NCBI GenBank assembly: GCA_013239625.1
Contig: MU053629.1
Span: forward strand, 34,676 to 98,675
DNA: 64,000 nucleotides
From: Lama guanicoe
Taxonomy: Eukaryota
Reading direction: 5' to 3'
The notes beneath the pieces were generated by a model, which saw only the letters and a list, made by a program, of their open reading frames with translations, made no database searches and was not told the origin of the DNA. The stretch's first letter is position 1, and every line of letters begins with the position of its first letter. A program made the translations under genes and the position numbers. Positions 2,407 to 29,821 of this stretch are shown here, one piece after another.

Positions 2407-2642
2407 CTGGTTATCCCGACATATGCGACTTCCTGCTTGTCCTCATTGTTCACCAGCGAAAGCCCAAGGCTATGCAGAGACAGCGTTACTTCATGACGGG
2501 CTTGCTCCGCTTCCTCCGCCTGCAGTGCTCTGGAGACCAAGGCCACGTCATCAGTGAAAAACAGAACTCTCTGGCGCCCATCTAGAAATGATACCCAGTG
2601 TATCTGGATGTTGGCATCATACGGAAACTGCCCACATTCATC
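2407..2642 (-). CDS. VPS13C: VPS13C exon (42nd in window), 236 nt, phase 0->2
   Basis: cag|GAT...ACCAG|gtacgg; DECGQFPYDANIQIHWVSFLDGRQRVLFFTDDVALVSRALQAEEAEQARHEVTLSLHSLGLSLVNNEDKQEVAYVGIT. Confidence 0.95.
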
Positions 2643-3881
2643 CTGGGGAAAAGAGAGACAGTGTTAACACCACAAACAGTAAGTTTTTATCAGGTCAAGC
2701 TGAACTACCGTAACTGAGAAAGCATGGCTACAGGAAACTATCAAAATGACACCAAGTTATAATCTGTTTTGAAATATATGCACCATTTTTTTTCAAACAA
2801 CAAAGATTAACAGAGCTTAATAATTTTTAAACTGTAGTTTGAGTTACCCGGTTAGTGCTCGGAGGGCACTTAGCAGGAACAAGAGTATCCTTCGAAGGCA
2901 CCAAAGTCATCAGATGCTTACTTGCTTCCCAGATGGACAACAGAATGGTTTAGAAGTTTACTGGAAAAGTAACCTCAGGTAAAACTAACCTACTTTATTT
3001 TTATGTTTTAATAATTTACAACATTGCAAATACCTATATAAATCACACTGTTAAACAGTCAAACCTGTGATGATCAATTTTTACTAAGTTTCAGTAAGAA
3101 GAGCCTTCTTGGCTGGCAGTCTCAAATAGCACTTAAAAATATGAGGCTTGATTTGGTGAGAGTTTTCAGAGATTTAAATAATGATTCTTCTTCATTCTAG
3201 ATTTAACATAAATATAAAAACAGTTCAACAAGCAGTACAACTATTATGTGCCTTTCATCTCATGCTTTCTTGGAAAACAAAAACAAAAACAAAAAACAAA
3301 TTAATAAAGGATGTGACCAAGAGCATAGGACTAGTTGATTTCTGTTGTTTAAAATTTACCTATTGCTTTTAGCACATGTCAAAGTAGATTGCCTAACATT
3401 TTTTACCCTAATGTGATCAAACTTTGGAAATGTTTCGGAGACACCTATTAAGAAAATGTTTTGTAAACTACAAAATTTAATATGTATCTTTGTTCAGTCT
3501 TACTTATTATTCAAATACTCTCTAATCCTATTTGTTTTTCATCTATTTGATCTGTTAAAAATTAAATGAGGTACCTTAAAATATCCTAACGCAATCCATG
3601 TTTCAGTTGACTTCCAGCATCTTAAGTTTTACATTTTGATCAGTATTACTCATTCCATGAAGGTTTATGGCTATCGTGTCTTCTCTGTCACATTATCATA
3701 TTCTATTTAATGATTTTTGTCTTGAGTTACAGAAATTTCAGAAATTTAAATCATCAACATTTCTTTCGTTTGCCTGTTATATCTTTACTATCTCCTCATG
3801 CTTTTAACTTTCTGTGTTAATTCAGTTAAAACAGATCTCCTGTAAGTAGCATATGGTTAGAAACTATTTTTTAGCTTCATC

Positions 3882-4357
3882 TGAATGTGGTCTTTTTGTA
3901 AAACCATCCATTTTTTAATTGAATTATACTTAATTTACAATGTTTGTTAGTTTCCAGTGTACAGCAAAGTGGTTCAGTTTACATATATTATGTATACAAA
4001 AATATATATAGTATAAATATTTATTTATAAACATATATAGTATATAATATATAATATATGTAATATGTATATTCTTTTTCAGATTCTTTTCCATTATTGG
4101 TTATTATAAGATACTGAATATAGTTCCCTGTGCTGTACAGTAGGTCACTGTTGTTTACCTATTTTATATACAGTAGTGTGCGTGTTAATCCCAAACTCCT
4201 AACTTATCACTTATATGTGGAATCTAAAAAAATAATACAAATGAACTTACTTACAAAACAGAATTAGACTCAAAGACACAGAAAACAAACTTACAGCTAC
4301 CAAAGGGGAAACTGGGGTGGGAAGGAGGGAAAAATTAAGAGTTTGAATGTGGTCTTT
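3882..4357 (-). mobile_element. 5'-inverted (twin-primed) L1 3' fragment with 14-bp target-site duplication
   Basis: Minus-strand L1 3'UTR (~3910-4202) is joined to a plus-strand upstream L1 piece (~4205-4345). Direct repeat TGAATGTGGTCTTT at 3882-3895 and 4344-4357. Confidence 0.85.
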
Positions 4358-4693
4358 CAATAGGAAAATTTAAACCATTTCATTTACTGACATAATTGAT
4401 GAGAAGCATGGTTTGCTGGGAAAAGTTCATGGATTGCGAAGTCAGACAGACCTGGTTTCAAATTCTAACCAGCGGTTCCAAGTTCCAATCATAAGACTTA
4501 GTGATAATAATATGACAAGCATTAACACATGATATATACTCAATGAAAGCCATTTGCCACTTACTACAGACTTCTTTAGGTTTCCTTCTTTTATTATAAA
4601 GGGCAAATTTTTCTTTACTTTCATTTTCTCAATTGTTTTAGAATTCTTTTGTCATTGATTTTAGTTCTACTAGGTGGTATCTTTAAAAAAAAA

Positions 4694-4879
4694 NNNNNNN
4701 NNNNNNNNNNNNNNNNNNNNNNNNNNNNNNNNNNNNNNNNNNNNNNNNNNNNNNNNNNNNNNNNNNNNNNNNNNNNNNNNNNNNNNNNNNNNNNNNNNNN
4801 NNNNNNNNNNNNNNNNNNNNNNNNNNNNNNNNNNNNNNNNNNNNNNNNNNNNNNNNNNNNNNNNNNNNNNNNNNNNNNN
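4694..4879. other. Assembly gap (186 N)
   Basis: Run of N directly after an A9 tract. Confidence 1.
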
Positions 4880-6250
4880 GCCCTTCTCATGTCCACCTGG
4901 GCCTGAGCAGAACTCCCTGCTCAGATCAACCCAGCGGACAAGAAATGGACAACTGGTTGGCTTCTAGCTCGGTTTCATCATCTGGCAGGTTACCGGCTGA
5001 CTGAGGGGTGATTATCTACTCTTCTTACTGCCTGGTTCTCTTAACACCAATCAGAAGATAAACTTTTAAAGCCACAATCCCGTGCATACACTAGTATCAG
5101 GTTCTTTCTGACTCTGCCTCATTATGCAGACTCTGACCATCTCCTGCAGGATGCCATTCCCACTTCTCCCCACTCTCCCTCCAGGGCCTGGACACTACCG
5201 TCTGGGAGCTGTGGTTGCTGGGGAGCATTACATGTGAGTGGAACGAAAGTACCGTCAGCACAGACAGACCCCTGGTAGAGCCACTGTATCTCTGAGCCAG
5301 AGGGCTAAGAGTATTGGGGAATTTCAGCTTCTATCTAACACTTAAAAACCCTGAGAGCTTTTCTGCTGTAAAAAGTAAAGCACAAGCAGGCAACAGAGCT
5401 CCATCAAACTGCCATGTGAAAATCACTTCAAGAATCCCGTAACTATCAGTCTGATTTTTCAAAAGTGGGTAAGTCTGTCTCTCTTATGGGTATTTCAGAG
5501 GGAAACAGGAGAGGATAGTTCAGTCACTGTTGGCCAATTACCATTTGAAAGGAGTCAAGAAAGCTCTATTTAACAACTGGCATTATCAGACAATGGAATA
5601 TGACACAGTATGAATTTCTCATGATAGTTTCATGACAGGATATATTCCTACAGAAACCAGATGACCTACCACTCACGGAGGGGCAATGCCTGTACTAGAG
5701 GGAGGCTGGCAGACGGATTCTTAAGCCCTTTCCGAAGTCTAAGACTCTAAGAAATAACATATTTAGTTAATTCAGCTATCTAAACATTGTTCCAATAAAT
5801 ATTTCCTTAAATTTCTTATATGGGGTAATTTGCATACTGTCAGACTCCTTTAATTAACAAAACACATGGCCTTAACAGCGAAATCATGTCTAAAAACCTC
5901 ACAGCCAACAGTGGTATGTACATGAAGTTTTTTTTCACTTAGTCTTAAAATTCCTTCCTTTTAAATAAAAGGAAATAAAGAAGCACTTTACTGGTATTTA
6001 CTTGGGAAAGATGAAGCAGGCCTACTATTTAAATTGTAAATAAATTATTTTAACTGAAAATTATTTTTCTCTTAGGAGAAAATATTGATATGGACTATCT
6101 GCAATCTAAAGCCCAAAAGCAACTTATTTTGAAATTTTACTTCCACTTTTTAGTTCAGTAAGGACGGAGATGACTTTGTGAAGCTAACGTGTCTACTCCC
6201 TTTGCTATGAGGTACCTCATAGCATAATACTCGTTCACATCAAATGATAC

Positions 6251-6377
6251 CTTTAACAGATCATGTTTCCCAGTATTTGCTGCGTAAGTCCATGTAAGTT
6301 TTCTGGTACCAGTAGGATCTGCCCAGGCAAAGAGTCAAACCTGTCTTGGCAGCAGTACCATTTCTTCCTGCGACCCC
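6251..6377 (-). CDS. VPS13C: VPS13C exon (41st), 127 nt, phase 2->0, contains in-frame TGA
   Basis: cag|G GGG TCG...TTAAAG|gtatca; GSQEEMVLLPRQV*LFAWADPTGTRKLTWTYAANTGKHDLLK; stop at 6335-6337. Confidence 0.9.
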
Positions 6378-7098
6378 CTGAAACACAAGCAACAGAGGGA
6401 AGATTAAAATACCCTGGCCTCGAGAATCCTACAGGACCTGTGGCTTACTGAGGAGGGGATTGAAACAAACATTTTATAGAACTGCCTTTGCTAACAAAAC
6501 ACAACTCTGTCTAAAAATAAGTAACCTAAAATGTCCAATAAGCTAATGATTTTGAAGCTTGAGGGACAAGAATACTGCCCTTTCTGAAGGTATACCCTGA
6601 ACTGATCCAGACAAGATCACACTAATGGAATTCATTAAGGTGAAGTGAGTGGTACATCAGAGATCACCCACAGAAAAGGCTGTGAATAGTAAATTTTTTA
6701 GTAGCTGAAGAACTTCACTTGGAGCTTAAATTTAAGACTTTTGATCAAATGCAATGCATAAGAAATATGAGTCTCGGAGAGAAGAAAAATGGGTCCATAC
6801 CATTGTAGCATTCTAGGCTTGCTAGAAAGGGCAAAATTGGGGGCCCCAGCTAAAACCTGCTAAATGCGAATCTGCATTTTAACAAAATCAGTTGTATAGA
6901 TTAAAAACATTTGTTTTCTTAAGTTCTTACTGAAATGCACACTGGCTCTGATCTCTTACAAATGTATGTATGGCATTATATATTGACATCCAACTCCTTC
7001 AAATAATTATCAGTATGTTTTACAGCATGTTTTAATAAAATATTTTAAAGCAAACTTTAAAAATCAAAGACATTTTATTCTAAAACATGAAAACTTAC

Positions 7099-7227
7099 CA
7101 GATCTTCTAAGCTTAATAAAGTGCCATTATCCTGCTGGTTGTAAAAGAATGGCCTGGAGGATCCTTCATAGCCCACCACTCTCACACAAAGTTTGCCCGA
7201 AAATTTCTCAGGCCAAAATGGGAGGTA
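7099..7227 (-). CDS. VPS13C: VPS13C exon (40th), 129 nt, phase 0->0
   Basis: cag|TAC...CTG|gtaagt; YLPFWPEKFSGKLCVRVVGYEGSSRPFFYNQQDNGTLLSLEDL. Confidence 0.95.
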
Positions 7228-7267
7228 CTGAAAATATAGAAGTTAATATCAATCAGTCTTAATACTA

Positions 7268-7374
7268 TGCAAATATATGTATGTAAACGCATGACTGGAT
7301 ATTGTGCCGTACACCAGAAATTGACACATTGTAACTGACTGCAGTTCAGTCAAAACAAAAACAAAAACAAAAAC
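7268..7374 (+). mobile_element. Very short L1 3' end with (CAAAAA)n tail
   Basis: gtgccgtacaccagaaattgacacattgtaactgact motif, A-rich tail, flanking AATACTA at 7261-7267 and 7375-7381. Confidence 0.75.
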
Positions 7375-8858
7375 AATACTAGGGTATAAATGAGACAGTG
7401 GCTAATAAAATTTTCAATTCTAAATCTGATCACGATTCAATTATTACTAAGTTTCTTAAAATAGTCCCTCCACATCCAAGATTTTTGACAATCTAATAAT
7501 TGTTTATGAAACCAAAGAAGAATAGATACATTAGTCTTTACTAACTTATGAAATAATTACAATATGAGAAACAAGTGCTATTAAAATGTCTCAAATATCT
7601 TGAATATTTAAAAATTATTATCTTAATAACATTTTCTTTTATGTGTATCTCATTTTAATTCCTTAATGCACTATGAATTCTTTCACAGAGTATCTCATTC
7701 TAGATAAGCCAGAAAGACAACTGAAGGCAGAGGACATTGCTGTAGTCCTGACACTATCCTCCTACCTGTTTGGCCTTGATCAAATCATACACCTTTTAAA
7801 GCCTTGGTTTTCTTATCTGTAAAACTGAGATTTTAGTTCCTAAAACAGAAGTCCTGTCTGCTAGAGAATACGGGGTAAATTCTATTTATTCTATCTATTC
7901 TATACTACTGCTGTCAAACTCACATCACAGATAAAAAGATAAGGAGCATTTATTTGTTGCCAAGTCTGTGGAGATCATTCCAAGTGCCTTGGGAAGCCCA
8001 CGCCTCTTAGAGCTCTTTGTATTGTAACTGGAATCCCTCCTCTTGAGCTTTCTGCTAAGTATTTTTAAAAATAATTTTAGAATCTTTTTTTTTTGAGATG
8101 TACAGAAGAATGGTTCTATCCTTAAGTCAGATGGTTTGGTTGAAAACTCGGGCAAATTCAAGTGCTAATGCCTGTCTTTGCACCTGTCCTCTCCCCAATT
8201 TTTCCTCATTGTCTTCACCTTACATCTTACTGAGTCTGCAAAGTTTAGTTCAAATGCCAGCTCTACCATGAAACTTTCCCTTTTGATCTAGACCACCACA
8301 ATGATACCAAGCTGCAAAGACTTAACTGACTTTTGAACAGTATGAGATTCAGTTTTCTTCTCTGTAAAGTGAAGGGCCTGAATTCTTGGAAATTTTCAAG
8401 GAAACTTCCAGCTCATCTATTCAGAGATTCCATAACCACCTATAACTTACCATATACTATCTTCTTCTCCATGTACTAATGTGTATGAGTCTTACACCCT
8501 CCAACAAGATTAGAAGCTTCTTAAATACAAAGACATTATCTTGACTATTGAGACAATACATAGTGCATTATCTTTATATACTTTTTACAGTCCATGTCCA
8601 TGTTTATACATACAGGAAGAACTAGAGAATGAGTGTTAACAGTCTAGACTGGTTAGTGGTAAATAATATCAACAATTTCCTTCTTTTTTTAATATATGTT
8701 TACAGTATGAAAGAAAAGTTTTAAAGCTGGCTATTATATTTTAAAACACAAATATGGTAACAAAGTAAGTATGACAAAGAGATATATGTAATTGTTATTT
8801 ACATGTCTGTCTTTATTTATACATTCTAGAAGCCAGTTATATGAAAGGAAAATTTTAC

Positions 8859-9023
8859 CTCTGAAGAAGCAATATAGTTCCACTTATTAGTTGGCATTGA
8901 GCCGTCTGATGCAATTTCACCAACTTCCAGTTCCAATGATGACTTGTTCTCAATTGTATAAAAGGGAGTCAAAGTAACTATTCGTGTAAGATTAAAACTG
9001 CTCATTTTGATGCTAACACCAAC
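8859..9023 (-). CDS. VPS13C: VPS13C exon (39th), 165 nt, phase 0->0
   Basis: VGVSIKMSSFNLTRIVTLTPFYTIENKSSLELEVGEIASDGSMPTNKWNYIASSE; AG/GT flanks. Confidence 0.95.
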
Positions 9024-9082
9024 CTGTGGAAAAGAAACAAACAGGCTTACCATTTCCCAGTACTTTATACAGCTCCTTTAAA

Positions 9083-9084
<2 letters not shown>

Positions 9085-9116
<32 letters not shown>
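9085..9116 (+). repeat. (AC)16 microsatellite
   Basis: Perfect dinucleotide run. Confidence 0.95.
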
Positions 9117-9118
<2 letters not shown>

Positions 9119-9762
9119 CATTCACAAAAAGACTTCTCACAGTATTTTAAAATAAGATTTCTTAAATAAAGTAACTACTATAAGACATGGTCCATGACTG
9201 ATTATCTTCTCACTAAGAAGAAAAATTTTGGTTCCATAGTTTGGTTCCATCAGAAATCAATTCAAGAAATATCAATCAGTTATTTAACTAATGATGACTT
9301 GCAATAACAGATTTCATTTTTAAAAATTTGTTATTTTTAACATTCCAAAATAAATTATTTTACAATTAATTTAGAAGCTCAAGTGTTGCTAATTTATTAT
9401 CTCTGCTGTCAATAAAAATAAAATAAAAATTTCAAAGTGGTAATAAAATAAGTCAACTAACGTCCGATTATTCAAATTTTCAGTCAAATTTAAGAAACAT
9501 TTGGCAGGGAGTGGTATGGAGTGAGGATTCTAGTATATTCTGAATATTTACCAAGTTGCTTACTTGCCACTCACTGTCTTAAGCTTTGACAAATTTAGGT
9601 TTTGCTTTGATACTAGTGGCCACAGAAATTTGAGGAGAGACGTAACAGTCCTCCACATAACACTCAAAATTCACATCTCTGTACCCCTTGGGGTCCAGCT
9701 CCTTTACTGAACTGAAGAAAAAGTGAATGAAGTCAATGGTAAACAAGCAAGCAAAATCTTAC

Positions 9763-9867
9763 CAGGTATTCCATGTTGTTGGCAGGACACTTCACACACC
9801 CATAATTTCCCACCGTATCCAATGAAAAACAACTGGACCAGGAACTTGTTGAAATTTTTAATTGTAC
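9763..9867 (-). CDS. VPS13C: VPS13C exon (38th), 105 nt, phase 0->0
   Basis: VQLKISTSSWSSCFSLDTVGNYGCVKCPANNMEYL; tag| and |gtaaga. Confidence 0.95.
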
Positions 9868-10569
9868 CTACACCAGAGAACACAAACCATCACATAAGAA
9901 ATCTAAAACACTACATTCATTTTATTTGATGGGAAGTTGCTAGACCATTAGAAATTTATTGAGTACATGAGATACAGGAAAACAATCAAAGTCGTATTGC
10001 AAATGGGTAACAACCACAGAAACTCTAAGGGCCAATATAATAAAAGCAGAGCTCCGACCTTCCTATTCACCTCTGCAAAGAGAACAGTGAATTCAAAGAC
10101 GTTTACCAATGAGATCCTCTGTTAGTTAAACAGGAATTATAACATAAAATGATATTTTCCAGTGTTAGACTTTTGATAGAGAGCTAACAAATTCTTAAAG
10201 TTTCAGCACATAGAGAATTTGTGCTTTTAACAGTATTCAGCAAACAGCAGATGAAAAGTGTTGTGATAAGCAGAATGGAAGACACAGTTCCTGTCTCCAA
10301 CGAGCTTCCGATTAAACAGAGAGACAGGAAATAAATACTAAAACTTATGAGAGACTCAATGTGATAAGACCCATATAAGAAGTATAAAATGCTATCAAAA
10401 AGTTTACATCTACCTATGGGATTAAATAAGTTTTACAGAAGAGATTTAACTGTGCTCCTGTATTAACCTCCTTGTACCCAACTAGATTCTAAAAAACCTG
10501 AGGCCAACCAGAGGTCAGACACATAAACAGGTAATTACAATACCAAGCATTCAGCAACACTCTCGGACG

Positions 10570-10748
10570 GGGTCCTCAAAGAGTGGTCTCGGGACCAGCA
10601 TCGTTGGCATCACCTGGCAATCTGTGAGAAGTGCAGATTCTCAGACCCTTCCCAGACCTACTGCATCAACTATGGTGGCACAACCCGGCAGTGTGTTTTC
10701 AGAGCCCTCTAGGTGATTCTAATGCACCCTGAAATTTGAGAAGCACTG
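10570..10748. mobile_element. MER5A-like hAT-Charlie DNA transposon relic
   Basis: ctcaaagagtggtc...catcacctgg...tgcagattctcag...cagacctactg...ggtgattct...tttgagaagcactg. Confidence 0.75.
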
Positions 10749-11368
10749 CTCTGAGAGAACATGGATGTGATCTCTAGCCCCATTTTTGCTGGTCAGACAA
10801 TCCTTCACATGTGTCAGGAAAGAGCAGAATGACAGAGGATGAAGAGCAGACAACCAGAGAACATGAGGCACACAGGGAAAACACAGAGAAGGAGGCAGAG
10901 AGCGCAGCTACACAGAGGCCTAGAAGTAAGTACTTGGGAAAGTGTGTGGTTAACCATTCCGAGACAGGAGTCTGAAAGGAAAGAAGGGACCAGAGAACCA
11001 ACGATCAGGCCTTAGGCACTAGGTTTCTCTCTCAAAGGCCTGTCTCTGTGCTTCACACACAGGAAGGCTCAGTTAAACCAAATTCAGCTGCTCTGTCTTT
11101 TGAAATGTTGCTTCATCACTGGTAAACTACATAAAATCAAGCTTTCTCCTTGACACTACTTCAAGGAGAGCAGTAATTCTAGGGGCCCTGGAGGAAAGGG
11201 TAACTCGGCCTCGGGAAGCTACTGTTTTTAGTTCCTGACACCCACTCGATGACACACTCCTTAAAAGTCCTCTTGGACCTAATTCATACCAATGGCACCT
11301 AGCAAACAGGTAAGTATGGCATTAGGTAAATAATAAATAAGTAATTTGTTGCATCGACAAAAACACAC

Positions 11369-11758
11369 CTTATTTTTACTAAAAATGTTCTCCTTCTTGA
11401 AGGAGAATAAAATAATATCCCTAAAATCAGCTGGATGTTTGACATGAATATCTTCTGAACGGTACTGGAGCACCCGAGAAGTCTTGTTGATGAGCCAGTA
11501 AGGACTAAAGACGGACAGCTCCATCTGGCTGCCAACGCGCTTGACATGCACTGACAGGTCGACGGTCAGCGCTTCAGCGGAATCAGAAGAAAAACACACA
11601 AGAAAGAATTCAGGAAGTGTATCATGTATGCGGAAACATCCACGCCAGTTTTTGCCCTGATATTTCACCAGAAACAGTTCCATTATTTCCCCACTGATTC
11701 TTGAATGCAGAACATCGGCAGCACTGCCTTCTGCTAGCTCATGGGTTTCTGCTGTTCC
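11369..11758 (-). CDS. VPS13C: VPS13C exon (37th), 390 nt, phase 0->0
   Basis: GTAETHELAEGSAADVLHSRISGEIMELFLVKYQGKNW...FSPYWLINKTSRVLQY...NIFSKNK; AG/GT flanks. Confidence 0.95.
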
Positions 11759-12682
11759 CTAAAAACAAACAGACAAAAACTCAATCTGCTTACTAATTTA
11801 AAAAAAAAAACCTTTGCAGTAACTTGTAACTTCCATATTTTATACATACAATAATAACTTACCAGATTCAGATTAATTGACAACTGTTCATAGTACCACC
11901 ATGTTGACATAGTATAAATGCCCATCATTTACTAAGGACTAAAAGGAAAACACTGTATCATAGCCAAAGGCAGAAACTGTCTTTTGGCCACTAGCAGGCC
12001 AATGGCTGTAAGTTCTGAGAAAAAGTCGGACCTCTGCCAAGAATCAAAGGCTGGATTCAGGGACACTAGCTGTTTTCCACCGAGAGCTACATCCTTGAAC
12101 AAACCACTTAACTATCTGGGCTTCAGCTTCTTCCTCTACTCACAAACCATGCCTAGTGGTTCTCATATAAACAGAATAAGGAAAGTGATATCAAACTATT
12201 CTGACAAGCTACCTGAGGTGGAACCATCTTAAAAATGAGTAACAGCAACATAATAAATCAAGCTTCCTTACTGAAAGCTTCTCTTGTATAAATACTACTT
12301 AGTTCATCTAACTAACTTTATTCTCCACAACTCAGGGACGGCTTATCATCAGATTAAAAAAAAAAAAACTAACATAGGTTCCAAGCACTTTTCAGATTTT
12401 TGTATTCTGAAATGTTGCAGCATGTAGAAATTTAAAGGTGTTTATCAGACTTCATGACTAGAAAATGTTCCCTAATATTTAAGACAGATAGTAATTATTT
12501 TTAAGTCCAAAGAAACTTGAACCAAAAAATCATCACTTTAAAATAAAAATTTTTAAATTAACTTTATAATAAATTCAGATGAAATATTTTCTCACTGGTT
12601 TTTCCCATACTTTAGCTAATAGAATTTTACTTAGTCAATAAAGAGATTGTTATAAGTATGAATTTATAGCAGATGCAGCAGA

Positions 12683-12890
12683 GTTCAGTGGTGGAGAATA
12701 AGGGGTCAAATTGCTTAGGTTCAAATCCCAGCTCTACAATCTATTGGGATCTCGGGCTGTCAGCCCCTCTATGACTTAGTTTCCTCATCTTCAGGAGGTT
12801 ACTGAAAGGATTAAATGTGTTAATATATGCAAAGCACACAAAACAGTGGCTGGCACAGAGTAGATGCTATACTAGTTCTTGCTATTATTA
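12683..12890 (+). mobile_element. MIR SINE
   Basis: ggttcaaatcccagctct...agtttcctcatct...ggattaaatg...aacagtggctggcacagagtag. Confidence 0.75.
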
Positions 12891-13015
12891 ATATTATTAA
12901 AGCATTACCATTATGTGATGTAAAACCCTGACCTCAACTAAAAATACCCTAAAAAAAAACCCTTAGAATTCACTCCATGCAATAATAAAAGTCAAATAAA
13001 ATGCAAGAGACATAC

Positions 13016-13310
13016 CTCAAGTAAATATGTTAGAGCGTATGGGAGAAAATTCCGCAAAGTAACAGTGGGATAAAGATGAATGATGTAAGCTGGATCCCAG
13101 TCCTCCCCATGTGTGCAAATATAGCTTAATTCATCAGGCAGAGCAACTGTATTGACTATGAGAGGTAAAAAGTTGACTTCTGTTGATGGACACTGCAGCA
13201 CACATCTGACTTCCTTGCTCCTATGAAGTTCTTCCTTCCAGGAAATGTAGGTGGTGGATTCTTTGTACTGATTCTCCAAGATACCAGCTGGCTGAATAAA
13301 CAACTGACAT
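13016..13310 (-). CDS. VPS13C: VPS13C exon (36th), 295 nt, phase 2->0
   Basis: CQLFIQPAGILENQYKESTTYISWKEE...YPTVTLRNFLPYALTYLLE; tag| and |gtatgt. Confidence 0.95.
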
Positions 13311-13793
13311 CTACAGAAGAAGAAAACAGAAGGGGGGGAAGTTTTTATTGAGAACTTAAGAAAAAGAATCTCATTAAATCTTCTTGATAACTCTACAAGT
13401 TAGGTACTATTATTCCTATTTTTATAGGTGAGAAAAACAAGGTCAAGAAAGGTTAAGAAACATAGCTAACTCATGTAGGAACCTTCTGGGAAAAAAACAC
13501 TCTGTAAAAAATGACCAAAAAAAAAAAAAGTCATTTCAAATACAAAGCAATTGAGTAAAAATGAGTCTCAAAAAATTCCAAAACATCAAATATACAACAA
13601 GAAATTTTCATTCTGGTAAACTCAGTAATAATATGAATGTATTCCTTTACGTCTTACAAATGGCTTTTTCAGATCTTCAGATAATTAAGAACATGAGATT
13701 ATTTCTTCCTAGAATATGGACCCTTAAATTACAGAATTAAAATATATATATTATGACCCTTCTATAGCTTAGTACATTCAAGGAAGTACCCAC

Positions 13794-13915
13794 CTATATG
13801 AATCTAAAGGGACGTGGAACTCCTCTTCAGGCCTGGCTACTCCAATGCGCTCCAACAGCTTGACATTCTTAACATACTTATAGATGATGAATGAAATAGA
13901 GAAATGGTTTTTAAT
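13794..13915 (-). CDS. VPS13C: VPS13C exon (35th), 122 nt, phase 0->2
   Basis: IKNHFSISFIIYKYVKNVKLLERIGVARPEEEFHVPLDSY; |gtgggt. Confidence 0.95.
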
Positions 13916-14993
13916 CTGTTGGATAAAAAGACATACAAGTTGTTTTAAAAGATGTAGAAGTTCAGAAGAAAAACGTGAGTTGCACACAATTACTTTTGAA
14001 TCTAAACATTTTCAACTCCAATAGGGGAAGATATTTTTATGGTAGCTGAAAAATGTTAAGATATTTAAGTGCTATCTATCTACCTACCTATCTAAATATA
14101 TATGAAACTTGAAACTGTTTAAGTGACAGTTGAAAATTATTAGGATATTCACATGCTTTGTATATTACATACTGAAATTTATTGTTAATTATATTATTTT
14201 TCAAATGTGTATTAATTTTTGAGGATTTCAGCCATACTACTATCTTCATTACAACCTTGATTCAGTGTACCATGTGACTAGACAGAAAAGGACAGCAAAG
14301 GAAATATGAGGTAAATAAATATAGTGCAACTCTCTTTTCTTGACTACAGTGTAATAGCAAACTATGAGACAACAATGGTCAAAGTTGGAAATCTTTTCAT
14401 TTTCATCTGATGTTACAGGTAGGAAGAAATGTTCTTTTGCTGACCATATACTGAAATCTAAAATGATGCACAGAAAAAAGAAAAATGGACAATGCCTTAA
14501 AGGTAGAAAAAAATATTTACACAGATTAACAAGCTCAAGTTTTTTTTCCCCTCCTCTGGGGAGATCATTCCAATATTCCTTCACACATACTTGAAAAATA
14601 CAATACAAAGAGATGGAGTGTTATCCTATTTGACAGCCAGCTAGTATTATAATACTCTTTAGTTCTGAATCTTTAAAGGAATAGACAAAAATTCCCATTA
14701 ATTTTAAACCTAGGAGACAACAAAATGGGAGTGTTTTATCACACTGTAAACCAAATATACTTCAATTTAAAAAACCCAAAAAAACAAAACAAAGCGTGTT
14801 TTATCAGCGACTTAAGATGAAGAATATTACAAAAGTATGTTGTAATACAGGAAAGAGCAGTCAGTTCAATCTATTATTTATTTCTGAATAATCAGCATTG
14901 ACCTAATAAAGTTTTACTATATTCCTATATTCAGCCAAATGATTTACTATTTCTTGATATACTAACAGGGCACAATTCACCTTTATGCATTAC

Positions 14994-15154
14994 CTGCAGA
15001 GGAGAACGAAGGGTAATTACTTTATTCCCTTCAGCTGCATCAATTTGTACCACGAGTGAGTCAAAATGACTGGCACTGGGATTGTATACATTATACAACC
15101 GCCGTCCAGGTCTGGCAACGGGGACTTTTGCAACTTCTGTATATCCATGTGGTG
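14994..15154 (-). CDS. VPS13C: VPS13C exon (34th), 161 nt, phase 1->0
   Basis: PHGYTEVAKVPVARPGRRLYNVYNPSASHFDSLVVQIDAAEGNKVITLRSPLQ. Confidence 0.95.
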
Positions 15155-15780
15155 CTAAGTAAGTGAGAAGCATTCCAAATATTAACTTACTTATATTTTT
15201 ATAAGATACAATCACCAGCAGTACCTCAAAATACCAGAGTATTCTGCCTCATGACTAGAAATGACGACCACACAAAACGTTTTTCTAAGACACAGGAACT
15301 AACAAAGAAAAGAAACTATTATTGTAAAGTTTTTTAACCAAGACAATTTCTCTTGGGGTTTTAAATGTATTAAAACAAACAAAATCCACCTTGTTCCTCA
15401 TCTTCTCAACTATATAGCAAAAAAAAAAAAAAGCCCTTTTCTGAGATGGTGATAATTACTGCCAACATTTTAGGACTTGTAAATACAGTTATTTTCTCTT
15501 CTCTTTGAGCTCCCATCCTTTCTGAAGCATACTAAATACTGTACTATTTAAGTACAAAGAAATAATCTGGTTTTCTAAAGTAATTCTTAAATTAATCAAG
15601 TTAAATTTTCTCAAGTTTAGAGGAAGAAAACAGGCGACAAAAGTTTATCAACTATTTCTTTCAAGCCTTTAGAAATGTTGTCTCTCAAGGTATCTGGAGG
15701 AAAATATTTTTCCACACTTTTATCAGAAATAAGCCGACACCAGCAATTCCAAAGGTGCCTTTAAAAATAAAGCAGCATAC

Positions 15781-16045
15781 CAAAGGTCAGAGTGAAGAGG
15801 GAGCTTTCTTGACGGCTCAGTATGGACAGTTTCCCTTGATGTGAAGGTTCCATGCTGGCATACTCCAGTTCCAAACTCTGACCAGCATCAAGATCACAAA
15901 CACCACTTTTCTCAGGGGAGCCCATCACTCTGAGATTATGATGGGGCTGTACCTTAATGGGAACACCTACAGAATTTGTTACTGTAAAAGGCGCCCTGTC
16001 TTTTAAAGAGTAGTCAAAAGTAGAAGCAGCGCCCTGTGAAAAACC
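15781..16045 (-). CDS. VPS13C: VPS13C exon (33rd), 265 nt, phase 0->1
   Basis: GFSQGAASTFDYSLKDRAPFTVTNSVGVPIKV...LSRQESSLFTLTF; |gtatgc. Confidence 0.95.
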
Positions 16046-16218
16046 CTGAAAAGGAACACAACATCACAATAACATTTTTGCAGAGCTCAAATTTTTTTCA
16101 AAAATTACACTGTGACTACACATTATTTAGAAACTAATTTTCAGGACAAACAAAAAAAAATCCACACATCTCAATTCAAAATTCTGTTTGAAATACTGAA
16201 AGAAAGAAGCAAACATAC

Positions 16219-16374
16219 CTTTGCTAAATTGTTGAAAACAGTAAGAGAACTTTTGGATACTGTTATATTCATTGTGTCTCCTGAAGAAATACCAACTTCT
16301 GTTTGTGGCTCAGGAATTACAATAAAATCATCTCCTGGCATCAAACTTTTATCCTGGACTGGATTGTTCTTTAC
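16219..16374 (-). CDS. VPS13C: VPS13C exon (32nd), 156 nt, phase 0->0
   Basis: VKNNPVQDKSLMPGDDFIVIPEPQTEVGISSGDTMNITVSKSSLTVFNNLAK. Confidence 0.95.
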
Positions 16375-17169
16375 CTACGGGGATAAACACAAAATAAATG
16401 TAACTTATTGGCCAATTAACAATAAAATTAAAATACTCTCAGTAGAGTTAAATGTTCTTAACCTAGTCATTTTATATTAAGACTCCTCAAAAGTCTCATT
16501 TTCAAAAATATGCAGTGCTTCACCTTAAATTAGTACAGATCAGCATTCTTTCTTTTGGTGTGTAATCAACACTAGGGAAATGTTCAGAACTGTGCCATGA
16601 AACCACTCCAAGTGAGCTAACACATTTATCTCCTGGGCGCTCCCCAGAGAAAGCTACTTTCCCAGTGTCACTTGACTCACGGTCATCATGTGTTGATGAG
16701 CACGCTAAGATGACCCTGAAGTCTACACTGATCCTCGCTGGAAATAACATCTGCAATTCCTTTTACTTTTACCAGTAACACCGATAAATAAGTAATACAA
16801 GCTTTCAGCCAGCCATCAGATTCCATCCTAGCTTTTGTTCTAATAGCATTTCAAAAGCCTTATAAAATATTCTTTATTAGCCTGCCTGTTCCACAGAGAG
16901 GTAGGTCAGAAGTATCACCCCCACTTTACTGAGAGGAAATTGGGACACAGGTTAAATGACTGCTCATCTTTAATATAAGAATCTGCTGAGTCAGCTTCAG
17001 TGTCTCTCTCACACCTGAGTCAGGCTGCCCTAGACAGGTGTGCTGTTACAACTTGTAAAGGGTATAATACTTATGTTCCTGTTAATCTAGAGAGACGTGC
17101 TTTGGTTTCTAGGATTCTGCAGTACCATAAGGAGATAGCACAGAGGATTCAATTCAAAAATTCTTGAAT

Positions 17170-17592
17170 TTTTTGATGTCTCAAAATGATTGAGTATTCC
17201 AAAGAGCTTCATTTACGTGGGTTATATCTATCAGTATGTATCTATGAGAAACTAAACTGAGAACATTTTAAATATTCACTTAAAAACAGTAATTACATGT
17301 TAAAACAATATTTTGAAGAGAAGTAAGTGTTAAAAATACACAGTGAGGAGAGGAGCATTTACAAATCTCTTCAGTGGCTGCCTTCAGAGAAGAGAGGGGC
17401 ACTCTCATTGCTGCTTCTGTATTCATTCCACTGCAAAATGACAAAGTCTCTGGAAAACGCCTTCGTATGCTTATGAGAGAATGAGAATGAAAATGATAGA
17501 TAACGTCTGAATATTATCCTGAAAATAATTTTGATCCCATGATCCTCTGAAAGGGCCTCAAAGATCCTGGACCACATCCTGAGAATCTCTGA
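17170..17592. mobile_element. Probable hAT-Charlie DNA transposon relic
   Basis: ccaaagagcttcatttacgtgggttatatctatca and terminal ggaccacatcctgagaatctctg resemble Charlie-type elements. Subfamily not assigned. Confidence 0.5.
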
Positions 17593-17661
17593 ACTAAAGA
17601 AAATATATAAATGAATGTGCTTAATGTCAGCCTACATAATAATATTTTATGATTTCCTTAC

Positions 17662-17748
17662 AGCAAGCTTTAAATTCCATGGTCTTTTCCCCTCCACTCT
17701 TTCGATCAGTGGCTCCCAGACAGCATGGGTCTCATTGTAATAATGAAC
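17662..17748 (-). CDS. VPS13C: VPS13C exon (31st), 87 nt, phase 0->0
   Basis: VHYYNETHAVWEPLIERVEGKRPWNLKLA (conserved VPS13 YYN...WEPLIE motif). Confidence 0.95.
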
Positions 17749-18118
17749 CTGGAAAGGCACAGAGTTATAATAAGAGAGTCTTTCAAATTTAATTACATAT
17801 TTCTACATGGAAAATATTAAGCAGTTGTTGCATGTCAATAACAATTTAACAGCACACTTTTGACACAAAGAATATATGTAAAGAGGGTGCATATTCTTTT
17901 ACTCTCTTACTTTACTGCCATAAACAAATTATTTAGCAAAAGAACCTTAAAAAATGACCAAATAAATAATACTACATAACAACAAATTCTGTTAGAATGT
18001 ACTATCTATTCTTATATATACTTGCTATGTTCATACAACCAAAAAAAGCTCACTTCTCAATTTTTCAATTGTACTTTTGAGAAGGAGCCGCTGCAAGTAC
18101 TAAATGATGTGGTCATAC

Positions 18119-18482
18119 CTCTAGTGTCATGTCAGCAGCAGCAGCCATCAGGGAAGTCCAATTCTTAATAGTTCCTGAAAACTTAGACTCCGCCAATAAT
18201 AAAGGTACAGTTCGATGCCCAAGGCCACATTCTAAGGTAACTTGAACTGACTTCACAACAACAGCACAATTTTCCTCTATCGATGGAGTTTCAATGTCTC
18301 TGAAATTCTCTGTTATTTCTGTTGCCATGTCAACACCAAGAAACCAAGAGTTATAATCACTAATGGATTTGATGCCCCAGAGATTTTGTTTCCTTAGACA
18401 CATCTTTGGATTCATCTTCTTTTGCCTTTGGAGACATAGCAGCCATTATTGTCATCACAGTATTAAGAATTATGGGTGAAAT
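18119..18482 (-). CDS. VPS13C: VPS13C exon (30th), 364 nt, frameshifted (phase 0->0 requires 3n)
   Basis: ISPIILNTVMTIMAAMSPKAKEDESKDVSKET, then a frame change to NLWGIKSISDYNSWFLGVD...ADMTLE. Confidence 0.9.
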
Positions 18483-18852
18483 CTTCAAAAAAGAAAGCAG
18501 GAAAATTTTTAGAATTCTTTCCCAGATGAGAAGAATTAATACATACTACAAAAATTTTTAAGTAACTAATTAAAATTTTAATTACATTAAATTCATAACT
18601 AAGGAAAACAAAAGAGAAGAACACACAAAATCATGTGTCAAGTCAACTAACCTCATAACAGTGACCTCTGCCCAGGTTATCTAGAATTAAGTAACTAATG
18701 TGTCAACTGTCAAAATCTAAAGTTAATCAATTCAGAGTAAAACAGTGTTACGTGAATAGAAGAATGTAGAAGTGTAATTGAATTTTACATTTTTCACCCA
18801 GCTACATTATCTAAACTAAGTGTGTGATCCTCATCAAGATAACACACACGGT

Positions 18853-19155
18853 ATATATATATGTATGTATGACTAAAACATTATGCTGTACACCAGAAAC
18901 TGATACAAGATTGTAAACTGACTACACTTTAATAAAAACAAAAAGTAAAAAAATAAAATAGATAAAAAGCGAAGTCCTACTACATACAGCACAGGGAATT
19001 ATATTCAATACCTTGTAATAGCCTATAATGAAAAAGAATATGAAGAGAATATATACGTATGTATAACTGAACCACTCTGCTGTACACCAGAAATTAACAC
19101 AACATTGCAAACAAACAATACTTCAATAAAAAATTTATAAAAAATGTAAAAAAAG
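18853..19155 (+). mobile_element. Two tandem L1 3'-end fragments
   Basis: Two copies of the gctgtacaccagaaa...tt(c/t)aataaaaa terminus, ending at ~18945 and ~19150. Confidence 0.8.
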
Positions 19156-19179
19156 ATATACAAACATGGTTTTCATTTT

Positions 19180-20120
19180 TCTCACTGAAACAGGAAACCT
19201 GAGAATCACCACGGACCCCCTTTCACCCTGACTTGCAAATTCTACCTCCTATTATCTCTGGATCCTATCTTTGCTCACTTCTTCATTCCAATCATCGTGC
19301 CTTAGTTCTACAGCAGTAAAGATTTCTTCTATGTCTGGTCAACACTGTATCAGCCCACCCTCCACATGATTTTCTAAAATTCAAATCTGAGCGTGTCATT
19401 CCTATGCTTAAAATCCTCAACAACTTCCCATACCTTCAGGATAAGATTCAAACTCTATTCAGCTTAGGACTCAAAACTTTTTGTGACCTGATGTCCAATC
19501 AGTTAGTTACCCATGGTTTTCCAAAGTTTGAGCAATACTGGGTTAAATAAGTTAAGTGGATTCCTTTATTGTTCACTTCTCACAACCCTTCCTCGTTTAG
19601 TATGCTAAAACGACACGATTACATCACCAAAAGAAGGATCCAGCATGCACTGCTTCCCAAACTTAACTGAATCCTTTTTCTCCTTGCCTTATTAATGTCA
19701 CCTATAATTAGTGTTCTGAATCCTACAACTCCACCACGCCATTCTCTCCAGCCATAAGGGATCACCCTCTCAAGTTCTTAAAGGATTTTTCAAACCTTTG
19801 CCTTTGGGCATGTTGTCAGTTCTGCTTGGATAACCCTTCCCCTCTTTCTCCATTTAACCTCCCTCAGATTTTCAAAACTCAGTTCAAGAAGCCCCACTTC
19901 CTTACAGCTTTCTCTGATGTCCTAGTCTGAGCAGGAGGCTCCTGCCTGTGCTCCCAGCAGCGCCTTGTGCATGCCTCTAGCACTGAAAGCTGTAATCAGT
20001 TGACACATTTCTATCTCTCACATATGTCATTAAGTTTTTTGAATGCAGGGAACATGTATCCCTAATGTACAGGACATTTTTTACACACAGCAAAAGCTCA
20101 GAAAATGTTTGTTGAATGAC
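19180..20120 (+). mobile_element. Degenerate L2 3' region (fragmented)
   Basis: tttctaaaattcaaatctgagcgtgtcattcctatgcttaaaatcctcaa and terminal aaatgtttgttgaatgactaa. Confidence 0.6.
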
Positions 20121-20821
20121 TAAAGTGACATATAACGAAACAGAACAATCTCAGCACCTTAACCCATGTCTCAGATAAAGTGCATACAAATTCAAGTTCT
20201 TCCCCCCATTTACCACTTTAAGTCTTTAGAAAAGCAAATCTGTTAAAATGCAATCTAAGACTATCTACTATTTAAAATATTGAGAGAAACCTAAGCTGTT
20301 ATTTACATGGTAATTCAAATGACATTATTTCGAGCCTTCATTTCATCACTACTGGTTATTCACCTATATAATAAAGCTGTTATCAGAATTGCTTTCAATC
20401 ACCTCAATTTTGTGCCCTTTGGACAGAGAGAGAAATAGACTTTGGAAAGTATTCTGTATCTGTATTGGCCATGAGATCATATTTAAAAACTATGAATGCC
20501 ACTGAAGAACTGACTGTTTTTTTCAATACTTCAAATGTAACAGATAAAAAAATCCTAATAATTTATTTCTAGCATATATCTATTATTATAAATATTTTAT
20601 AAACCAAGTAAAACATTTAATCACATAATTATTAATTCAACCAAATCTTATCTCAAATAAAAACCTAAAAATACATTATTGCAAATAAAATAACAGCAAC
20701 CTTATTTTCCCATCCTTCCTTCCCATTTCATGTCTGCTCTCCCCTCCAAACCCAAACTCCAACACACATGCAAATATAATAGATAAAAGCTATCCTGATC
20801 ATTTGTGTACATTTAAAAGTA

Positions 20822-21044
20822 CAGATCACCTTGAACAACATGGGTTTGAACTGCAGGGATCCACTCATGTATGGATTTCTTCCAATAGTAAATACAATGG
20901 TACTACAAGATCTGCAGTTGTTTGGATCCACAAATGCAGATCCTCAGATACGGAGAAATGCAGACACTGAGGAACCGAGTATTCTGAGGGCTCACTACAA
21001 AGTTAAACGCACTCCTAATCCCCACATCGTTCAAGGGTCAACTG
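20822..21044 (+). mobile_element. Tigger2-like (TcMar) non-autonomous DNA transposon
   Basis: TIR-like ends cagatcaccttgaacaaca...gttcaagggtcaactg; a related copy lies at ~48311-48556. Confidence 0.8.
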
Positions 21045-21216
21045 CACTCTTTCAAAGAAAACAGAAACAAACATTTGCATTAATGAGAATGTTTCTTAAT
21101 GTTAGAGGTATTTATTCATTACTAAATATGTGAGTAGCATAATGCTATAGATATGACAGACATCAAAAGATAGGAAAAATAATAATTTTCACCCAAATAA
21201 TACGATAGGCACTAAC

Positions 21217-21309
21217 CTTAATTATAACTTCTTCAACATTAATATCTATATTTTCTTTTCCTGAAGTCCATGCACATTTTTTCATAAATAAAGAACAGGG
21301 CTGTAAGAT
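21217..21309 (-). CDS. VPS13C: VPS13C exon (29th), 93 nt, phase 0->0
   Basis: ILQPCSLFMKKCAWTSGKENIDINVEEVIIK; |gttagt. Confidence 0.93.
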
Positions 21310-22647
21310 CTAGAAACAAATAAAATTTACTTATGAACATGTCTTACTTAATTTGAGATCTTTAACTATAACCTATTACTAAAATCAAAAAGGCAAATTA
21401 AATTATAAGAGACTCTCTTGTGAGGGCTCCTTCAAACTCTAAGTCTATGACCACTGTTAAAGGACTTTAAGCAGTTCTGATCAATTCCTCTAGGCCAAGT
21501 TCTTAAGTAATGATGCACATTTACTATTAGAAGCTTAAAATGTTTCCTTTTGCTAAATAAAATTACTTTTAAATGATGCCCTGTGTAAAATACACCTTTA
21601 AGATATCTATAAAAGATATGAGCTAAAGACTATGGTAAGATCTTACACTTACAAAAAGGTAAATGAGGAAATGGAACTGGCATTTCATTATAATTTTTAT
21701 GATCACTAAATCACTCGAAACTGTTAAACAAATAGTTCTGTTAACACCTTTTAAAAATAGACTATATAGTAAAGTAGGTAAATGAATAGTTTCCAGATGA
21801 TTAACAACATGTCAGTCTTCAATTTCCTCAAAGGTCCTTATCAGAATAAATTTCAAATCTTCAAATTTGATTTATTAAAACCATAAAGCCTATATACTTA
21901 AATATCATCAAAGAAATAAATAAAGTAACCTCGCTCTTGAATGCGGGTATTAGTACTGCACAACTTTCAGTTTTAAAAAAATTAGGATGTGCTTTAAATA
22001 GAATGATTAGCATAAGCTTTCTGCTGACATGTCAAAAGAAGATGATCCCAATAAACAATGTTTCATGATAAAGTATAAACTAAGCTTAGCACTGCATTTC
22101 CTTATGCAAGTCACTCTGTCCACAAATTTCTTTTTATTTAAAATAACACTGCAAAAGAGTCACATTAAATAATGATGCTCTTAAACATAAAATTACCAAT
22201 TTAACATTAAAAATCGGTATGGTAATTAAAATCATATTTTTCAACAATAATGTGAAAGTATAATTGAAGTTAACTTGTAATATAGCAAAACAATCTCTTT
22301 CGGTCACATGACTCCAAATGAATTTTTTTGTTCATTCATTCATTCATTGGATGTACTGTGGGGAGCAAAAGCAACAGCTGAAGAGGAATGTGGTATTGTA
22401 CTAAAATTCAAATAGTGTTCGGCGAAAGATGGTATAATGAGAATGAGTTTGGAGGTAGTACACAGTTTTGTCACTAGCAGACATGGCTAAATCAGTTAAC
22501 ATCTTTGCAATTCAACATCCTTTTCCATAAAATCTCAAGCTGGAGTAAATACTCTGAAGTCCTACAGAGCTCTCACATTCTCGATTCTATGAATCAACCA
22601 TTTCTGCCATCCTTCAATCCAAGCTCAGGATATAAGGTAATTCTTAC

Positions 22648-22877
22648 TGTGGTAATGTTCTTTCCTCTCTTTTCTCTGAGAAAAGGGCAAGCAAGTACTT
22701 TAAGGTCTCTCACAGAGGCTTCCATCTTCTGTTCGAGTTGGGATGCTGACAGAGAGAGGTTACACTGGAAGGAGGCTGTCAGAGCAGGAGCGTCAGCCTT
22801 TGTCAGACTGGCAACAAATACCACTTCTGGATCTGTGATCTTGGCCTTTAAAGTCATATTTGGTCTTACAGAGTCAT
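22648..22877 (-). CDS. VPS13C: VPS13C exon (28th), 230 nt, phase 1->0
   Basis: DSVRPNMTLKAKITDPEVVFVASLTKADAPALTASFQC...REKRGKNITT. Confidence 0.95.
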
Positions 22878-24036
22878 CTGAAGAAACAAATATAGGGACC
22901 ATAAACGTTCTAGTAAAGTAAACCCTGTCACTTGTGTACATGTTATCTATAATTTGCTAAGTTGCATCTAATATCCTATTATGGATACAGTAAAATTAAC
23001 AATATTAATAACTGACTGGTTAATATGAATGATAACTGGTTATTAACAAATGCTGGTTATGTGCAATCTGATCCCTGTTGTAAGAGGATCATTCCCACTT
23101 TGACCTAACAAAAATAATCTTGTTTTGAAGTTCTTTTTGTCAGAATCAATGTGCATGTATATATATATCTGAATATTACATCACGTTGCAGGAGCAAGGA
23201 AGGGGAAATGAGAGGGGAATATCAGGAGGAGGGTAGGAGATCCTGATAAACTAGACAGACCAATATTGTTTGTTTATTTTGATTTCATCCTGAAGTATAT
23301 ACTCCGTGTTGTACAATCTATAGTATAAATACATTAAATGTATATATGAATACAGAGATATCACATGATCACAGTTTAAGAAAGGTAAAAGGAAAAAATA
23401 AAATTCTGACCTTCCCAGTAAACAGCAGTTTTCCAATCTTGCTGAGTTGCACATTAGAGAGAAAAATGCCTGACCTTAGACAATTATAATTTAACAGAGA
23501 AAATCATTGGTCTATTCGGCAATACTGGAATAAATGGTTTACGGGTCAAGGAGTGGCATCAGCATACATGGAGACCAGACATCTGCAACCCCTCTCCTGA
23601 CTTGGAAGAGTCTGAGGTGATGTCCAGGGCTGTCACGTTGGGTCCTCCAATACCCTCGCCTTCTGCTTTTATCTGTTTAATTGCTCTTCAATATGCTATA
23701 ATTCTTCCAAGTATTTTCTTTGAATAAGACTCCCTTTCTATAAAACAGGCTGCCAACCACAGGCTCAGATTATTAACTCCCTCTATTTCTGGATGAGTAA
23801 AGAAATGTTAGTGGCAGAGCTGGAACCAGAGCAGAGGTTTCTTGGCCCTGATTCAATATATATACTCCACCTCTCTCTTAAAAATCTATCCTTACTAAAG
23901 TTATTCTACTGAATACATTTAAATTCAAAAGAGTAACTTTATATTCTTAAATTATCTAATTCTTTTTTTTTCCTGTGTGTAATTTCTGTTAAAATACATG
24001 ACAAGTTGTCATCTACAACAGATAAATTCTGCTAAC

Positions 24037-24281
24037 CTTTCTCCATCTTGATTTTTGGCATGACAGTCTGTCGTACTGGAATCTGTGATTCTTTGGCCAG
24101 ATTTTCTGGACTCTGAGGTACAGCTTTGATAAAGAAATCTGCCACAGTCATCAGAAACTCCACACTGGCACAGACATACAGCTTGTCAAGAACAGCATCA
24201 ATATGACTTCCATTTTTCCCTTGTTTGTAATTTATGTCAATCATAGAGCTGTTATCTTGGCCATTCTTCTTATCAATCATT
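24037..24281 (-). CDS. VPS13C: VPS13C exon (27th), 245 nt, phase 2->1
   Basis: MIDKKNGQDNSSMIDINYKQ...LYVCASVEFLMTVADFFIKAVPQSPE...KIKMEK. Confidence 0.95.
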
Positions 24282-24686
24282 CTAAAAAAAAATAAATATA
24301 CATCCATTATGTTATTCCTGCTAAAACAATTAAAAAGATGAAAAATTTCCTATACATCTTAATAATTCTTCTTTCACCTTTCAGCTTCCAATCTGAACAG
24401 AAAACAGATCAGTATTAAGTGGAGTATTAGCTTAATACTCCAGTATTAGTTTAATAGCTAATCAGCAACCAAAATATGGTCTCATAATCTCCACAGCAAA
24501 GTTCATGTTAATAAGCAATTACAGAATATTTCATATAGAGAAACAAATCAATGACTGCTGAAAGGAAGTTTGGCAATTAGCAAAATGAGCCCCCAAAAAT
24601 TTAAAAGACAATCTCTTTACATTATTTTACAAAATAAAACATCCCTGAAGGAATTTATCTCCAAAGATCATCCTATACAATTGAGT

Positions 24687-24730
24687 GCAAAAGTATTCAA
24701 TGTAATTCGCAAAAGTATTCAATGTAATTC
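24687..24730 (+). repeat. Perfect 22-bp tandem duplication GCAAAAGTATTCAATGTAATTC x2
   Basis: Identical units at 24687-24708 and 24709-24730. Confidence 0.95.
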
Positions 24731-25603
24731 GAGTCCACACATCCTCGTGTGTGCTGCAAAGAGCCTGCTACCAACAGAAGGATGGCCTTTATCACCCTTG
24801 CCTAGATAGCGGTGAAGGCTACCCCAGGACATGCAATTTGCAAAAGAGAAAAGCTGGTTGCATGAAAGCACTCTGTCCTCATTTACTCACTTCTTAGAAA
24901 AACAAAGGGCTCAGAAATACCCAGCATACATTCAATGGAATCCAACTTTAGGTAACAACATACTTTTTCTCCAAAAAACATCAAGGACAAAAATATTATG
25001 CATCTCATTATGTGAGAAAGGAATAAAAATATAATTAGGCTATTGAAGTTGCATATTTCTCTATTTCTCACTTGATAGTAAGGTGATATAAATTAATCTT
25101 TCAAAAATGGGTTGATAACATGAAAATTAGGGATTCCATTTCTACTGAAAGTTTTAAAAAAATTTCACAGAATTGTTTTAAAATATATAGACAAAATAAA
25201 TAAGACAAAGAAAAATATTTAACTTTAAGGGTTTTTGAAAAAAGATTCTGCTTACTGGGAACAATTTAGAAAAATATATTACCAATGAACCATACCATGC
25301 GGATTTAATTATTAAAATTCTTGTATTTTCTTAGTTTCCACTTTTAAGACAGGATTTTATTACTAAACTTCCCTTTAATTCAAACTTTAAAGCAACAGAA
25401 TGTGAAACAGCAATACTTCATGATGCACTTCAAACTGAAATATGACCAAAGACCTCTTCTGATAACCCCAAGGAACAGGATCCCAGAAAGGATGATCATG
25501 AGACCCCTTCAGACAATCTCAAGCCCAGCGATCAATGCCTGGCAGCCATGCCAGGTGCAACGCCAGCCTTACATAATGTACAGCAAGTTCAGAGATGACA
25601 AAC

Positions 25604-25774
25604 CTTGATGTTGCTCTCTCAATTCCTTCCCTGAGATCATCAAGGGTGCATGTCTTAAGCTTAAGGTTGACATTCATTGAGCCATCCTTAAACATCTTCC
25701 CTCCAGAGGCCATAAGGTGCAGCCTGAGTTCGCCAAGCTGGAAACTGTCATTATGAAATGAAAGTTTTGGACTC
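25604..25774 (-). CDS. VPS13C: VPS13C exon (26th), 171 nt, frameshifted (phase 0->2 requires 3n+2)
   Basis: cag|GAG TCC AAA A CTT TCA TTT CAT AAT...; the conserved frame reads SFHNDSFQLGELRLHLMAS...EGIERATS. Confidence 0.9.
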
Positions 25775-28159: not shown

Positions 28160-28269
28160 CTGGGTGATATCATTGTTATAAAGGACAATGGAAAGAGATT
28201 CAAAGTGAAAGTCAAACTGGAGAGTGACATCCTGATCCAAAGAAAGCTTTGAGTCTGGCAAATCTTGTT
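28160..28269 (-). CDS. VPS13C: VPS13C exon (25th), 110 nt, phase 1->0
   Basis: EQDLPDSKLSLDQDVTLQFDFHFESLSIVLYNNDITQ; CAG|gtatgt. Confidence 0.93.
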
Positions 28270-29727: not shown

Positions 29728-29790
29728 TTTTTTTTTTTTAATGGAGGGACTGGGGATTGAAACCAGACCTCATGCATGCTAAGCATGCCT
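29728..29790 (-). mobile_element. Partial Vic-1-like tRNA-derived SINE
   Basis: T-tail then aatggagggactggggattgaaaccagacctcatgcatgctaagcatgc, the reverse complement of the 3' half of the SINE at 43671. Confidence 0.7.
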
Positions 29791-29821
29791 ACTTTGCTTC
29801 TTCTGTAAGTATACCACCTCA

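Follow-up and report, generated by a model that had tools for sequence, protein, structure and literature searches.

A nonsense codon in a VPS13C exon of a guanaco assembly, possibly a passenger on an already broken sequence

Biallelic loss of VPS13C causes Parkinson's disease of early onset in people. A 64,000-nucleotide stretch of a Lama guanicoe assembly (here called the window) contains a VPS13C exon interrupted by a TGA codon, which raises the question of whether this stop inactivated the gene, arose in a sequence that was already broken, or is private to the assembly.

The VPS13C gene model and its nonsense codon

The gene in the window is the VPS13C orthologue, as it is collinear exon by exon with its counterparts and is 88% identical to horse and seal and 97.9% identical to camel. 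To call lesions, its 42 exons, with 6,798 nt in all, were aligned in a frameshift-aware manner to the proteins of horse and seal, and the VPS13_N, VPS13_M, and VAB regions were placed by a Pfam scan of the Camelus ferus protein P0188. Splice dinucleotides are canonical at 84 of 84 sites; one intron, at 52927 on the minus strand, uses a GC donor, and the remaining 41 donors are GT. The model also contains an internal duplication (about 59900-47150 versus 45000-30400, minus strand), in which exons of 80, 60, 117, 104, 168, 305, and 148 nt occur in both halves.

Camel VPS13C (C. ferus P0188, C. bactrianus P0200, and C. dromedarius P0202) matches the window exon by exon, with the identity to P0188 extending over 2,261 codons. 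Unlike the window, the camel proteins have the Arg at the stop position, contain the 45-residue exon that precedes it, and show no frameshift.

The TGA lies on the minus strand directly after codons for P-R-Q-V (plus-strand 6335-6337 reads TCA). Its frame agrees with that of VPS13C orthologues, and no other in-frame stop occurs among the 2,261 aligned codons. The initial annotation had placed it in frame in an exon with normal splice sites, and this is borne out by the orthologue frame and by the AG and GT that flank 6377..6251. The same annotation had taken the lost residue to be an Arg in a conserved exon, and the orthologue comparison agrees: the position is Arg in 158 of 163 homologues, Lys in 2, and without a motif match in 3, while a stop occurs in none, although these counts (from the members of a set of 213 proteins that have both flanking motifs) are inflated by many isoforms of one species. 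All three camel species have Arg here. We considered read-through of the stop or an alternative genetic code but rejected both, given the Arg in 158/163 homologues and a frame that is already lost upstream.

Table 1. Features of VPS13C and its surroundings in the window
Feature	Position	Strand	Remarks
VPS13C, 42 exons, 6,798 coding nt	2407..61512	-	camel residues about 761-3069; all acceptors AG, 41 GT and 1 GC donor
+1 nt insertion in A run	25765..25768	-	shifts the frame near camel residue 1914; earliest window lesion in reading order; translation ends at 25753
Loss of 2 nt compared with orthologues, next to four A in a row	18384..18387	-	shifts the frame near camel residue 2189
Upstream exon, ends in phase 0	7099..7227	-	exon alignment
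721-bp gap-free intron, expected 134-nt exon (camel residues 2905-2949) absent	6378..7098	-	orthologue alignment
VPS13C exon carrying the TGA, 127 nt	6251..6377	-	AG acceptor and GT donor intact; out of phase with exon 7099-7227
In-frame TGA	6335..6337	-	Arg2963 codon of Camelus ferus P0188, human Arg3007
186-N assembly gap	4694..4879	.	next intron, 1.4 kb from stop exon
Downstream exon, starts in phase 0	2407..2642	-	in-frame acceptor if missing exon and stop exon are both skipped; exon alignment

Human codon 3007 and the CpG argument

Human numbering of the site comes from PDB chain 9yqp_B (human VPS13C, 3,777 residues), with the chain numbering assumed to be the native one. Alignment of this chain with the camel peptide that ends before the site placed the Q at 3005 and hence the Arg at 3007. 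The PDB chain was used because the chimpanzee isoform differs by two internal segments; numbering by serine offsets in that isoform gave no fit in the first range tried.

At this codon, NM_020821.3 c.9019C>T (p.Arg3007Ter) is described in PMC12027003 as a known pathogenic VPS13C variant, for which it gives allele frequencies of 2.03e-4 in Finns and 1.30e-5 worldwide. Since a C>T change at the first base of the Arg codon yields a stop, the human codon is CGA, and this nonsense change recurs in humans. The initial annotation had proposed that the stop in the window is a CGA>TGA change. This proposal is supported by the human codon and the published variant. Because the stop matches human codon 3007 with its known c.9019C>T, the camelid stop likely arose by CGA>TGA, with the ancestral codon taken from the human one. 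Codon usage alone gives a probability of 0.63-0.90 that the ancestral codon was CGA.

The human p.Arg3007Ter (PARK23) and the camelid stop thus have in common the codon, the predicted base change, and a truncation that is predicted to fall where the VAB domain ends. They differ in their surroundings, as the human variant is a rare allele of an otherwise intact gene, while the camelid stop sits in a reference sequence with three lesions upstream.

CGA>TGA makes up 7 of the 863 nonsense substitutions possible in the mapped coding sequence (0.8%), and 13-26% of germline nonsense changes are expected to be of this type under assumed transition and CpG weights. The resulting likelihood ratio for a real mutation versus a uniform random miscall is 15-31 under the assumed rates, which upholds the earlier point that a random miscall is an improbable source of a CpG substitution.

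Upstream lesions and the reading frame

As assembled, VPS13C carries four lesions, namely an inserted A, a 2-nt deletion, an absent 134-nt exon, and the TGA. Each is of a different kind, and none lies outside the 3′ half of the coding sequence that was mapped. The missing upstream exon, the phase mismatch, and the two frameshifts upstream go beyond what had been annotated for the stop.

The absent exon is present in camel P0188. We found no remnant of it in the 721-bp intron or in the rest of the window: the best local score was 21, which 98.6% of 500 shuffles reached, compared with 230 for a neighboring-exon control. As the intron contains no gap and its direct repeats reach 9 nt at most, no collapse of a repeat is evident at this place.

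Because the intervening 134-nt exon is absent, the stop exon is out of phase with its predecessor. Translation as assembled terminates at 25753. If the frameshifts are ignored, joining 7099 to 6377 shifts the frame, and translation terminates 38 codons on, at 6263. Thus, with an upstream exon absent and two frameshifts further upstream, the TGA is never read in frame as assembled. The stop falls in the very exon orphaned by the exon loss, where a random stop would fall 1.9% of the time. The lesions cluster and call for a common cause.

We polarized the amino acid differences between the window and P0188 with ten outgroups. Over the 2,261 codons, there are 47 differences, of which 21 are window-derived (including the stop), 22 are camel-derived, and 4 are ambiguous; over the same span, the other two Camelus species differ from P0188 at 5 and 6 positions, which places the window in a camelid outside Camelus and hence in a South American one. 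Among the derived differences, 8 on the window branch and 7 on the camel branch hit positions that do not vary among the outgroups. When the differences were split at the first frameshift, window- and camel-derived changes numbered 5 versus 14 upstream and 16 versus 8 downstream (Fisher p 0.014, with the boundary chosen post hoc). We therefore found no gene-wide relaxation of selection in these 21 versus 22 polarized changes, the sole excess being the post hoc 3′ one. The 42-codon stop exon holds 2 of the 21 window-derived changes (p 0.057), the second being a Glu>Lys at 6268, at a site invariant in the 10 outgroups. On neutral expectation, three small lesions should be accompanied by 20-31 missense changes; lesions are in excess over missense change with a P of 0.003-0.26, depending on assumptions.

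Competing explanations for the lesions

We examined public runs for the segment 5900-7300. Among the 24 runs listed, 20 contain part of the segment, and the top 14 DNA runs all share 0.96 of 150 sampled words. None of these 14 (five organism labels, six studies) reaches 1.00, and the shares predicted for one, two, or three private sites are 0.977, 0.956, and 0.933. The ceiling at 0.96 is weak evidence because private local lesions, unrelated errors, and a ceiling of the index all fit. RNA runs, with word shares of 0.05-0.36, were left out of the evidence. One run, X1, reaches a share of 0.96 with 51 million letters of contigs, equal to runs of about 2,000 million letters, which may be chance or a hint of extra copies.

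VPS13C is among the 11,861 1:1 orthologues reported in PMC12127551, where, according to its text, the alpaca model XM_031679458.1 was lifted to llama, guanaco, and vicuna; the same text states that RefSeq may correct nonsense and frameshift changes in its models. The 15 of 40 camel-cluster members listed (13 Camelus, 1 bat, and 1 whale fragment) include no Vicugna or Lama protein, and the 120 of 619 matches listed include no separate Vicugna entry. Seven ORFs of the window, of which 3 depend on the frameshift at 18384-18387 and 4 are controls, were looked up for exact matches; 0 of 7 matched, the controls included, and this result is hence uninformative. The main text of a preprint on copy number variation in four camelid species makes no mention of VPS13, and we did not find VPS13C in the supplements of PMC10873959, PMC13663546, and PMC9926112. 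In the library searched, we came across no paper that treats VPS13C together with alpaca, or together with gene loss and pseudogenes, and among the matches listed for VPS13C and camel, none concerned camelid VPS13C by its title or the start of its abstract.

We give an even chance to the reading that the TGA is a genuine passenger on a sequence that was already broken; this and all other odds reported here are judgments rather than computed posteriors. Loss of the exon or one of the frameshifts would have come first. Deamination of a methyl-CpG would then have turned CGA into TGA in an exon already out of frame, and the stop would have been carried along in a sequence released from selection. 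Such a TGA would likely be tolerated because its exon was already out of the reading frame. The CpG hit at a known hotspot, the clean exon loss, and the position of the stop in the orphaned exon argue for real decay with the stop as a passenger, and we infer as part of this reading that the lesions exist in animals, beyond the assembly. For it stand the four kinds of lesion, an exon loss in gap-free sequence with no repeat that could collapse, the 3′ excess of 16 versus 8, and the two changes out of 21 in the stop exon. Against it stand the balanced 21 versus 22 changes, the 84/84 splice sites, the 0.96 ceiling, the 1:1 coding model, a frameshift in a homopolymer, and the N gap 1.4 kb away.

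The main contender, to which we assign a substantial probability that stays below even, is that the lesions are private to this assembly (through errors of the consensus, local misassembly, or heterozygosity of the sequenced animal) and that VPS13C is intact in South American camelids. The ceiling common to all 14 of the best DNA runs is consistent with two private sites, the branch counts are balanced, splice sites are intact, the +1 change is in a homopolymer, and an N gap is nearby; VPS13C is moreover intact in three Camelus species, and PMC12127551 treats it as coding and 1:1 orthologous in four species of the New World. This reading has to contend with the likelihood ratio of 15-31, as random errors have no CpG preference, and with a clean, gap-free exon loss that lacks a collapsible repeat and is atypical of base-calling error. 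It would also require a common cause for four independent lesions within 20 kb, and no Vicugna or Lama protein is among the listed cluster members. A far less probable proposal, which the initial annotation implies and which we consider very unlikely, makes the stop a fixed change and the first of the lesions, the one by which the lineage lost VPS13C function. The hypermutable CpG and the pathogenicity of the change in humans speak for it, but the stop is one of four lesions, it is the last of them in reading order in the window, and nothing dates it first. The objections to loss of the whole gene, given below, apply to it equally.

That the TGA is a passenger can itself be understood in three ways (skipping of exons, a 3′ duplicate, or whole-gene loss), which cannot be told apart with the present data. 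In one, which we consider rather unlikely, the exon loss and stop are real and shared, both exons would be skipped in frame, the two frameshifts stem from assembly error, and the product lacks 87 residues. Together, the missing exon and the stop exon measure 134+127 = 261 nt and are flanked by phase-0 ends, so that their joint omission would preserve the frame; protein conservation overall is undisturbed; and the predictions P0003 (Scotinomys) and P0184 (Cervus hanglu), both named "hypothetical protein", join the same flanking exons. However, 155 of 163 homologues retain the exact spacing between the flanking motifs, the skips in P0003 and P0184 were probably forced by defects of their own assemblies, the orphan exon still has canonical splice sites, and two separate error events would be required. 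A decayed duplicate of the 3′ half, merged into the locus while an intact copy lies elsewhere or collapsed, has in our view the same low probability. It would account for the position of all four lesions and of the window-derived excess 3′ of camel residue 1914, but this asymmetry test is post hoc, orthology is single-copy and 1:1 according to PMC12127551, and the main text of the copy number preprint leaves VPS13 unnamed. Still less probable, we believe, is that the whole of VPS13C is a recent unitary pseudogene in South American camelids, with four real lesions and the stop a later one. The assembly does carry four inactivating lesions of different kinds, and loss of VPS13C is biologically possible because Vps13c knockout mice are viable, with VPS13A partly redundant, as described in PMC12463328. 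Against this stand the mere 5 window-derived changes in the 5′ half, the excess of lesions over missense changes, and the coding annotation published in PMC12127551.

We consider it doubtful that South American camelids are natural VPS13C/PARK23 mutants that, after the split from camels, lost one exon, saw the next decay at the codon whose loss is pathogenic in humans, and retain a VAB-shortened VPS13C or none. The kind of event (CpG nonsense and lineage-specific gene decay) is already well known. Other camelid gene inactivations, such as that of TAS2R16 in Old World camels (PMC12127551), resemble the window in that a frameshift or nonsense change hits a conserved single-copy gene. However, as set out in the text of that study, such losses had to be shared by several assemblies, whereas the lesions in the window come from one sequence of a gene listed there as 1:1 coding. 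If the lesions are private to the assembly, the locus is a cautionary case, in which CpG nonsense at a human disease codon needs reads before gene loss is called. Shared lesions, in contrast, would make alpacas and llamas long-lived mammals that lack full-length VPS13C, and would offer a test of the capacity of VPS13A to stand in or of VAB function when 87 residues shorter.

These 87 residues lie where the VAB domain ends on its C-terminal side. In P0188, the Pfam stretch for this domain, a Rab7-binding module of six repeats (as described in PMC13430412), is 2438-2972. AlphaFold mean pLDDT was 40 for P0003, which lacks both exons, and 37 for the intact control P0013, values too low to judge folding of the skipped form. 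A third prediction, P0002 (Castor), skips a longer stretch in the same region. In the VAB region of the camel protein, residues 2491, 2693, 2884, and 2951 of P0188 are camel-derived changes (G>W, F>L, S>F, and S>L) at sites invariant in the ten outgroups.
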